The translations under genes were made by a program, and so were the position numbers. 64,000 bases of DNA from Candidatus Hodarchaeota archaeon. GTDB lineage: Archaea > Asgardarchaeota > Lokiarchaeia > Sigyniarchaeales > SOKP01. Where the stretch lies: NCBI GenBank assembly GCA_048886685.1, contig JBHLKM010000007.1:1-64000 (forward strand). The letters are read 5' to 3'. The notes below the pieces were generated by a model. The model had not been told where the DNA came from, did not search any database, and saw only the letters and a program-made list of their open reading frames with translations. Of the stretch, positions 290-6,116 are shown piece by piece; position 1 is the stretch's first letter; the number at the start of each line of letters is the position of its first letter.

Positions 290-1603
290 ATGAAATATAT
301 TGATTGGTTAAAACAAAAAGGTTTAGAATATAAAGATGGGATTCTACACTTTTCAGATATGAATACTATAGAAATCGCTGAAAAATTTGGAACCCCAATT
401 TATGTAATTAGTGAAGAATTGATAAGGAACCAATATAAAAAATTAAAAAAAGTGTTGGATTCAGAATATAAGAAAAATTCAATACATTATGCTATGAAAG
501 CAAACTCTAACTTATCTCTTTTAAAAATACTTGACTCTGAAGGGGCTAGTTTTGATTGTACCTCTACAGGAGAGATTTATACATGTTTTAAGGCAGGGAT
601 CTCTCCCGATAAAATCATTTATACTGGAAATATGTTTACTAACGATGATTTTGAATTTGCTGTTAAAAATGATATTCTCGTTAATTTAGATAGTATTAGT
701 CAATTGAAAAGATTGGCTAAAATATATGATGATTTAGGAAAAGAAAAGAAAATGATTTCTTTTAGAATTAACCCAGAATTCGGAGCGGGGCATCATACTC
801 ATACTATAACAGCTGGAAAGACCATTAAATTCGGGATTTTAGATGATCAAGTAATCGAAGCATATTCAAAAGCAAAAGAATATGGTTTTAAAGAGTTTGG
901 AACTCATATCCATATTGGTTCTGGAATAATCGATGCTCATGATTTTGAAAAAGCTGCAGATAAATATTTATCAATTATCATGAAGTTAGCTGATACGCTT
1001 GATATAGCATTTGAGTTTGTCGATTTTGGTGGAGGTTTGGGAATACCCTATCGCCCAGAAGAAGATCCTTTAGATTTAGAACTTTATAAAACGGTAGTTC
1101 TTAATAAGTTTAAAGACTTGGTTGAGAAGGGTAATTTTGGAGAACCTGAGTTTATAATAGAACCAGGACGTTATCTATCAGCAGAAGGGTGTATTGTTTT
1201 GTCTCAAATTAATACAATTAAAGATAATGGTTTTAAATTATTTGCTGGGATAAATGCTGGATTTAATACTCTTATACGCCCTACTATGTATGGTTCTTAT
1301 CACCATATTATAACCTGCAATAAAAAAGATAACGAGAAGACATTATCTTATGATATTGTTGGACCTATATGCGAATCGGGTGATATAATTGGTAAAGAAA
1401 GGCAATTTCCGAAGTTAGAAGAGGGTGAATATCTTGCTATACTTGATACTGGTGCTTATGGTTTTACAATGAGTAGTTCATATAATTCTAGACCTAGACC
1501 TGCGGAAATTTTAATAAATAAAGGTGAAACACAAAAAATCCGTGAAGGAGAGACTTTAGAAGATTTAATTAGTAATCAAAAAATTCCTGAACATCTAAAG
1601 TAA
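290..1603 (+). CDS. lysA: Diaminopimelate decarboxylase
   Basis: YAMKAN PLP lysine, HIHIGS, DFGGGLG, IEPGRY, GPICESGD, GAYG..MSSSYN motifs. Confidence 0.96.
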   Translation: MKYIDWLKQKGLEYKDGILHFSDMNTIEIAEKFGTPIYVISEELIRNQYKKLKKVLDSEYKKNSIHYAMKANSNLSLLKILDSEGASFDCTSTGEIYTCFKAGISPDKIIYTGNMFTNDDFEFAVKNDILVNLDSISQLKRLAKIYDDLGKEKKMISFRINPEFGAGHHTHTITAGKTIKFGILDDQVIEAYSKAKEYGFKEFGTHIHIGSGIIDAHDFEKAADKYLSIIMKLADTLDIAFEFVDFGGGLGIPYRPEEDPLDLELYKTVVLNKFKDLVEKGNFGEPEFIIEPGRYLSAEGCIVLSQINTIKDNGFKLFAGINAGFNTLIRPTMYGSYHHIITCNKKDNEKTLSYDIVGPICESGDIIGKERQFPKLEEGEYLAILDTGAYGFTMSSSYNSRPRPAEILINKGETQKIREGETLEDLISNQKIPEHLK

Positions 1604-1698: not shown

Positions 1699-1800
1699 GG
1701 ATACCCTCTAATAGTCTCGATGAAGTGTTGGCGTAATGAAATCTGTACTTAGAATTGAAACTAAGAAGATTGATGATAATACTGATCTGCACTGATATCC
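1699..1800 (+). ncRNA. Box C/D sRNA (about 100 nt, extended architecture)
   Basis: Ordered boxes C (TCGATGA 1717-1723), 12-nt guide, D' (ATGA 1736-1739), hairpin 1740-1771, C' (TGATGA 1771-1776), 15-nt guide, D (CTGA 1792-1795). Terminal stem GGATA 1699-1703/TATCC 1796-1800. TTATAA at 1673-1678 upstream, T-rich tract downstream. D guide is complementary to the archaeal SSU h34 consensus GCAGGUCAGUAU. Confidence 0.75.
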
Positions 1801-1819: not shown

Positions 1820-2641
1820 CTACAGTCCCAACACTTCGCTTGTTGTATAGATCTTATCCTCCTTAGCAATAGCAACAAATTTAATTGCTTTAATTGAACC
1901 CTCAGCAAAACATTCTCGGCTATGAGCTTGATGTTTCAATTCAATTCTCTCACCTGGTCCGGCATATAAAATTATATGATCTCCAACAATATCACCACCG
2001 CGAATTGAATGAATTCCAATCTCTTCCTTTGCACCTACAGTACGTTTACTAGGACCACGTTGCCTTCCAAATTTCGCAATTTTATCAAAATCAGATCCTA
2101 ATGTATTACTTATAGCTTGTCCTATTTTTAATGCTGTACCACTAGGAGCATCTATTTTTCTATGATGGTGCGCTTCAATTATTTCAATATCCCAATCTGC
2201 TAAATAACTTGTCAACATAGATGCCATTTTAAATAGAACATTTACACCAGTAGCCATATTTGGTGAAAATACTGCAGGTGCATGATTTTTCTTAATTAAT
2301 TCCTCGAGTTTTTCAAAAAATTCTTGAGATAATGCTGTGGTTCCAATAACACATCTAATTCCATTTTCAGCACAAATTATACAATTCTTTTCAGTTGCGG
2401 GGGCAACTGTGAAATCTACAGCCACATTAGGTTTAGTTTGAGAAATAATCTTCTTGAGATCTTTTACATCATCTATTTTTATAATGTTAGGATCTGTCGT
2501 ACCAGCATATAATGCTAATTCTTCACCAATTTTAGTTACATCACAGGCAGCAACAACATCAATTTCCTCATCATCTAAAGCCAGTTTACTTATTAGTTTA
2601 CCCATCGACCCTGTTGGTCCAAAAATCAATAATCTAATCAA
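1820..2641 (-). CDS. dapB: 4-hydroxy-tetrahydrodipicolinate reductase
   Basis: GPTGSMG nucleotide-binding motif, VIGTT, EAHHHRKIDAPSGTA, RGGDIVGDH. Confidence 0.96.
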   Translation of the reverse strand: MIRLLIFGPTGSMGKLISKLALDDEEIDVVAACDVTKIGEELALYAGTTDPNIIKIDDVKDLKKIISQTKPNVAVDFTVAPATEKNCIICAENGIRCVIGTTALSQEFFEKLEELIKKNHAPAVFSPNMATGVNVLFKMASMLTSYLADWDIEIIEAHHHRKIDAPSGTALKIGQAISNTLGSDFDKIAKFGRQRGPSKRTVGAKEEIGIHSIRGGDIVGDHIILYAGPGERIELKHQAHSRECFAEGSIKAIKFVAIAKEDKIYTTSEVLGL

Positions 2642-6015: not shown

Positions 6016-6116
6016 GGGAGGGTGGTCTAGCTTGGTATGATACTGTAGGGTTTTCTCTACGGCATGAATCTTGGTTTGGGACCAAGGGGTCGGGGGTTCA
6101 AATCCCCCCTCTCCCA
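6016..6116 (+). tRNA. tRNA-Pro(UGG) with a 27-nt non-canonical intron (6042-6068, position 25/26)
   Basis: Acceptor GGGAGGG/CTCTCCC, D arm GTCT..TGAT, anticodon stem CTTGG/CCAAG with TGG at 6077-6079, T arm GGGGG-TTCAAAT-CCCCC; intron bounded by a BHB-like motif; CCA not encoded. Confidence 0.93.

Follow-up and report, generated by a model that had tools for sequence, protein, structure and literature searches.

Yeast Gm1428, the site of snR56, and human Gm1490 lie in helix 34 (h34) of the small-subunit (SSU) rRNA (PMC2794176). The snR56/SNORD25 site can be traced back to LECA, and an archaeal counterpart was identified for just ~3 of the LECA snoRNA sites (PMC3511168). snR56 is moreover listed among the single-guide snoRNAs with extra base-pairing beside the target (PMC3116282). 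Among archaea, Pyrobaculum sR32 has been detected by RNA-seq, guides with chaperone-like double contacts have already been proposed, and long guides with inserted hairpins are known, for example the ~90-nt Mka sR30 (PMC4644070). A second point of comparison is the k-junction, a motif of the TPP riboswitch, the DUF-3268 RNA and Haloarcula marismortui J4,5 and J94/99 (PMC4005666, PMC10573300). L7Ae did not fold the two k-junctions that were tested, for which steric blocking was proposed (PMC10573300), and no box C/D guide with a k-junction motif is found in either of these papers.

The element described here lies on the plus strand of the window (the whole stretch of 64,000 nt that was analysed) and, judged from its sequence and from that of its relatives, is a real, conserved box C/D guide sRNA of Loki-type Asgard archaea. 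It sits in a 216-nt gap on which lysA (290–1603, plus strand) and dapB (1820–2641, minus strand), both named from their translated sequences, converge; it is located 3′ of both genes. Blastn with 1653–1816 retrieves it at E<1e-19 from 32 of 35 same-genus genomes. A pattern made of the D guide and box D occurs, usually once per genome, in 96 of the 132 other family genomes, the reversed-pattern control being near zero, while a covariance model adds more family members and one genome in each of two sister families and finds a single copy in this genome. Across 61 loci examined, 45 adjoin lysA. Searches with strict filters retrieved no homologue from genus g22 or from the complete family-f2 genomes G043, G049 and G054; a lysA–dapB gap of g22 (L189, G216) lacks the sRNA and contains a different long AT-rich hairpin instead. 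Rfam, including the C/D models to which the first-pass annotation had pointed, gave no match at gathering level, and two genome-wide C/D scans of this genome were both noisy (77 against 33 control hits, and 20 against 75). In the literature searched, the coverage of which was incomplete, we found no description of Asgard C/D sRNAs, nor of any three-way junction that combines a C/D motif with a conserved 5′ loop.

Conservation was assessed on 169 distinct, partly redundant homologues that could be parsed and on an alignment, A1, of 56 homologues. The sequence letters and the order of the boxes (C, D′, C′, D) are as the first-pass annotation had them, but its registers for C and C′ are not: the base claimed as the first sheared G is a G in just 103 (C) and 84 (C′) of the 169 homologues, and the true boxes lie 3 nt downstream, where both read AUGA-N-(G/A) in essentially all 169. 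Box C is AUGAAGU at 1720–1726 (AUGAAGA in 89, AUGAAGU in 61 and AUGAUGA in 11 of the 169), box D′ is AUGA at 1736–1739 (155 of 169), box C′ is AUGAUAA at 1773–1779, and box D is CUGA at 1792–1795, invariant in A1. With the registers corrected, the expected conservation in relatives is borne out across the 169 homologues, and the four boxes are able to form two kink-turns, as in archaeal box C/D sRNAs. Boxes C and C′ are each preceded, directly after a hairpin, by a 3-nt bulge (1719–1721 and 1772–1774) ending in U, which is present in 71 of 73 homologues. This bulge-final U is the base recognised by L7Ae, and the arrangement corresponds to the predicted geometry of a standard kink-turn. In 56 of 56 homologues the G of box C is paired to the C in box D (G–C at 4b/4n), and the adjacent 5b/5n pair, 1726 with 1791, co-varies (U–A in 26 and A–U in 20 of 56). 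The 4b/4n pair of C′/D′ is A·A, that is, degenerate.

The guides, given at first as 12 nt (D′) and 15 nt (D), become 9 and 12 nt. The D′ spacer (1727–1735) is 9 nt long in 166 of 169 homologues and degenerate, with a conserved core G-R-C-R, and the D spacer (1780–1791) is 12 nt long in 160 of 169, a combination that departs from the typical, though not obligatory, archaeal pair of ~12-nt spacers. Nor do the boundaries 1699–1800 hold, since the conserved folded unit spans ~1664–1816 (~155 nt): the folding z-score is −3.3 for 1662–1819, with a mean of −3.7 over 25 homologues, versus +0.4 for 1695–1805. The 5-bp terminal stem once thought to close the shorter RNA is private to this genome, its 3′ arm following box D in one of the 169 homologues.

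As no 16S or 23S gene was found in the assembly of this genome, rRNAs of the same genus stand in for them: three full 16S and four near-full 23S, along with ~25 further Asgard 16S. G027 was left out of the genus set; its linked 16S–23S contig (L043 and L057, on G027:C18) is just 66–68% identical to the other genus 23S and is probably a contaminant of that assembly. The genus 23S genes L053–L055 and L064 span 3.4–4.0 kb against 2,987 model positions, which suggests that they carry insertions or introns.

On the genus 16S, positions 1779–1790 pair with 1157–1168 over 12 bp, where at least 10 bp had been anticipated, with one G·U at D+6; C1787, the D+5 base, stands opposite the first G of CAGGUC, genus 16S position 1160. 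On these same-genus sequences the duplex thus has the at least 9–10 bp and the Watson–Crick pair at D+5 that are expected of a guide, and D+5 is a Watson–Crick C in all core variants. The D guide duplex (1780–1791) is the best in the 16S, none of 40 shuffles reaching its energy, and the run length of the spacer is equalled by one of 60. The core 10-mer is identical in 152 of 169 homologues, a minority of copies having guide changes or a 1-nt insertion, and the h34 target site does not vary among the family 16S sequences. For the numbering we took C1192 and G1207 to be the E. coli landmarks. These, together with the alignment in the supplement of PMC4644070, place the target at position 1197. 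Comparative evidence thus supports, as first proposed, the assignment of the D guide to G1197 of 16S helix 34 as its predicted target, the snR56/SNORD25 site.

Yeast snR56 (RF01188) and SNORD25/U25 (RF00054), of clan CL00049, have the same target G and the same guide-to-box register, seen also in the Rfam snR56 model; the snR56 guide, however, precedes box D′, whereas the Loki guide precedes box D. Covariance models of the clan gave no match to 1705–1805 at E≤10, the family threshold not being reached. In the crenarchaeon Pyrobaculum calidifontis, sR32 has the same D guide bar one base, in the D position and in the same h34 register, but it is 49 nt long, lacks hairpins and carries another full guide, whose site falls ~20 nt further downstream on 16S (PMC4644070, additional files), whereas the Loki sRNA has ~155 nt, a 9-nt degenerate D′ spacer, a G·U at D+6 and three helices. 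Short sRNAs of the Asgard families f21 and f26 (L078–L083, L121–L123) share target and register, with the guide before D′ as in snR56. Like the Loki sRNA they have C′ after a hairpin with a 3-nt bulge; unlike it, they have a perfect G–C at D+6 and no such loop in the position of P2 (see below). The D+6 G·U, immediately next to the target, is nearly fixed in the Loki family, while Pyrobaculum and other Asgard families have G–C there. The f21 loci tested are not beside lysA or dap genes, and L078 (f21) matches the snR56 model weakly (18.2 bits, E 0.97; cut-off 54). The second spacer of L078 and L079 holds an 8-nt complement of the h34 5′ strand, and the f21 sRNAs have a conserved sequence upstream of box C.

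Since Pyrobaculum sR32 has a G1197 guide, the target is not an Asgard–eukaryote signature. The initial description as a eukaryote-style guide in an Asgard archaeon is right in that an Asgard C/D sRNA is directed at G1197, but the guide shared with sR32 weakens that framing, as do the double contacts of a chaperone-like kind already proposed for archaeal guides. Guides for G1197, placed before box D or before D′, are found in Pyrobaculum as well as in Loki and several other Asgard families, and this spread gives the debate over homology and convergence one more case.

In function the sRNA would be unremarkable, adding a guide to those for an established Nm site; what sets it apart is that the guide is embedded in a fold of ~155 bases and three helices, with the C/D motif in a three-way junction. 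The outer stem P1 pairs 1664–1679 with 1801–1816 over 16 bp and shows covariation: among 17 pairs counted, 95% of cells are paired and 10 pairs have two-sided changes. Its ~55 G·U cells versus 6 A·C cells identify it as a plus-strand RNA rather than a DNA repeat or a promoter pair. The P2 hairpin (1684–1718) ends at the box C bulge, with 0–1 unpaired nt before the bulge in 119 of 169 homologues, and has two-sided changes in six of its eight counted pairs. What had been taken for a 5′ extension is the 3′ arm of this covarying hairpin. The hairpin that had been noticed between D′ and C′ is indeed there (P3, 1740–1771); it has a conserved 5-bp base, is 96% paired with two-sided changes in three of five pairs, and varies from 12 to 33 nt in length. 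Over the whole structure, 94.5% of cells are paired, against 88.4% after shuffling and 39–49% after sliding. The covariation sought in the lysA–dapB region of relatives amounts to 21 pairs with two-sided changes, although these covariation counts take in related, non-independent genomes and are overstated. RNAalifold independently recovers P1 and P2.

The 9-nt P2 loop (1696–1704, core GGAUAC) is nearly invariant, the core being present in 119 of ~122 genuine matches to a pattern that did not demand the loop. Its distance from box C is 15–16 nt in 78 of 80 homologues, as opposed to the variable length of P3. A fixed sequence at a fixed distance argues that the loop is positioned and selected. 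With 1705, it is complementary to 16S 1081–1087 (E. coli numbers) over seven Watson–Crick pairs in 78 of 80 homologues, although a 7-bp rRNA match is expected by chance for such a loop (60 of 60 shuffles). The 790 loop of 16S is probably a T-loop, and the P2 loop has in common with it the 9-nt size, the closing GG/CC and five identical loop bases. The P2 loop may possibly pair with 16S 1081–1087, or it may copy the 790 loop as a docking or protein-binding motif.

P1 and P2 would place the C/D kink-turn in a three-way, k-junction-like arrangement. The third helix lies on the non-bulged strand, between 1n and −1n, as k-junctions have it; a three-nt loop and tandem G·A/A·G pairs are likewise common to both, and the difference from known k-junctions is that the non-canonical helix is here formed by boxes C and D. 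The linker lengths obtained by free-energy folding are noisy. The tension between L7Ae binding and a k-junction might be relieved in one of several ways: P1 may be trimmed from a precursor, linkers of a few bases may leave room, or the C/D end may assemble differently. The architecture lends itself to a direct in vitro test of how L7Ae and Nop5 handle the junction and of the need for outer-stem trimming.

The D′ spacer is not a credible methylation guide, because its D′+5 base varies (110 G and 8 A among 119) whereas the candidate rRNA sites near h34 are invariant in all paired genomes, so that no fixed target fits. Inspection by eye of the ARAGORN list gave no convincing tRNA targets. The core of the spacer has three possible partners, namely the D guide, the h34 5′ strand and the five bases 3′ of the target. 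In pairing with the D guide, both positions of the spacer that vary between purines lie across from a U, and where one homologue carries a C in its guide the spacer base facing it is G; taken alone, this duplex is weak, at −2.4 kcal/mol, and one homologue breaks the pairing. The h34 5′ strand (1064–1069) shares first rank with one other 16S window when 31 spacer variants are scored, with a best value of −7.7 versus −5.2 to −7.1 for eight column permutations, and the sister-family homologue L085 pairs with this strand over 8 bp. The five bases just 3′ of the target are an energetically weak partner (rank 249 of 1480); they fit a dual-guide geometry and the extra base-pairing of yeast snoRNAs including snR56 (PMC3116282).

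We are fairly confident that the element is a single-guide archaeal box C/D sRNA methylating G1197 via L7Ae, Nop5 and fibrillarin. Genes for L7Ae-family, Nop and fibrillarin proteins are all encoded by this genome, with matches to PF01269 (E 3e-78) and PF01798 (E 4e-62) adjacent on C15 and two PF01248 genes. We infer that plus-strand transcription between lysA and dapB would give an RNA, or precursor, of ~155 nt with ends close to those of the conserved unit, and that L7Ae, Nop5 and fibrillarin would assemble on the two kink-turns, the canonical helix of which would be supplied by a hairpin, P2 for C/D and P3 for C′/D′. Within the pre-ribosome, the 12-nt D guide would anneal to the 3′ strand of 16S helix 34, where G1197 would presumably be 2′-O-methylated by fibrillarin. 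In the free RNA the D′ spacer would most likely form a weak duplex with the D guide; once the RNA is bound, it may provide a short extra contact beside the target.

A more ambitious proposal, which we put forward tentatively and consider rather unlikely, is that the RNA grips the SSU head at three sites, with the D guide on the h34 3′ strand, the D′ spacer on 1064–1069 and the P2 loop on 1081–1087, the C/D kink-turn being a true k-junction in the mature RNA; alternatively, the P2 loop would structurally mimic the 790 loop. The contacts at 1064–1069 and 1081–1087 would be colinear and antiparallel along the RNA. If this were true, h34–h37 would be held open during assembly, an archaeal parallel of the eukaryotic extra-pairing and chaperone snoRNAs. 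The first-pass annotation had also envisaged three SSU-head contacts; the two beyond the D guide fail as named, while the h34 5′ strand and 1081–1087 survive as candidates.

A related and in our judgement improbable reading is that the RNA binds helix 34 chiefly to assist the folding of the SSU head, as a chaperone, and causes little or no methylation, the k-junction blocking the normal catalytic C/D module. The G·U fixed next to the target, the heavy conserved scaffold, the resistance of k-junctions to L7Ae-induced folding and the possible extra contacts at 16S 1064–1069 and 1081–1087 would all suit such a role. They have to be set against the Watson–Crick C at D+5, the canonical length of the D spacer, the L7Ae-recognised U that closes the bulge and the fact that G1197 is a known Nm site, all of which favour the methylation guide. 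Very unlikely, to our mind, is a DNA element (a MITE bounded by inverted repeats, or a pair of facing promoters), or a fold regulating the lysine genes in cis from their 3′ side, that would match rRNA by chance. Although the arms form a 16-bp inverted repeat with a TATA-like word, both flanking genes belong to the lysine pathway and a few genomes have tandem duplications of the 3′ half, a MITE would be dispersed whereas this genome has one copy, and the G·U bias of the P1 arms is foreign to a strand-symmetric repeat; L088 and L091 replace the TATA-like word on both arms, the sRNA is 3′ of both genes and fixed beside lysA, and the same guide recurs in unrelated contexts in other Asgard families.

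Smaller still is the chance that the D′ spacer directs a methylation to the beginning of the 23S rRNA, at C4 if counted from the Rfam model start. Positions 1725–1734 do pair with 23S 1–10, the 5′ strand of helix 1, over 10 bp with one G·U in four of four full genus 23S, and nine genus sequences show no variation in this target; however, box C itself supplies two of the ten pairs, the commonest variant (A at spacer position 7, in 81 of 119) breaks the pairing, and 11 of 40 shuffles do as well. The 102-nt RNA of the first-pass annotation, with its 5-bp terminal stem, 5′ extension on h39/h40 and D′ guide on h38, we regard as hardly tenable. Its D′–h38 contact does correspond to an 8-bp match (1726–1733 with 16S 1079–1086, genus numbering), and h38 takes one of the first three ranks when windows are scored for the spacer set, but 35 of 60 shuffles pair equally well, h38 varies in the family without the spacer following, and the spacers of G200, G269 and G223 mismatch their own h38. 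Besides the rarity of the terminal stem, the 7-mer of the extension recurs in 5 of 169 homologues, and the h39/h40 target octamer is absent from the three genus 16S and the four genus 23S, a 7-mer of this target being found just at 16S 607–613, outside the head. The least probable of these readings, to which we attach almost no weight, makes the 5′ part a leader of the U3 kind that would pair with the start of 16S: in this genome 1669–1698 pairs with 16S 1–30 at −13.1 kcal/mol, yet over 80 homologues a median of 25% of other 16S windows pair equally well, the segment is already paired within P1 and P2, and there is no match to a U3 model.

Several further features were observed around the sRNA and its homologues. 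A divergent lysA-adjacent paralogue (L180, L181 and L184 in genus g18, also L234, L289 and L337) keeps the P2 loop and the boxes; its D guide carries a 1-nt insertion, and its P1 is weak or missing. In G204 this paralogue lies 380 nt from a canonical copy, the box D of which is CUAA. Partial second copies, containing the 3′ part alone (from D′ or box C onwards, without P2), are found ~1.1–4 kb away in five genomes (L107, L108, L111, L118, L185) and are partial tandem duplications. An A-rich word at 1620–1640 of the window, ~30 nt upstream of P1, is semi-conserved within the genus; it could be a promoter element of the sRNA or the U-tract terminator of the dapB transcript on the minus strand. 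Elsewhere in the window, ARAGORN reports a tRNA-Pyl(CUA) at 6016–6116, of which Rfam matches 6044–6116 as tRNA. A CTTGG/CCAAG anticodon stem is present there around TGG, and the gene is probably a tRNA-Pro(UGG) in which a non-canonical intron of ~27 nt lies near the D arm.
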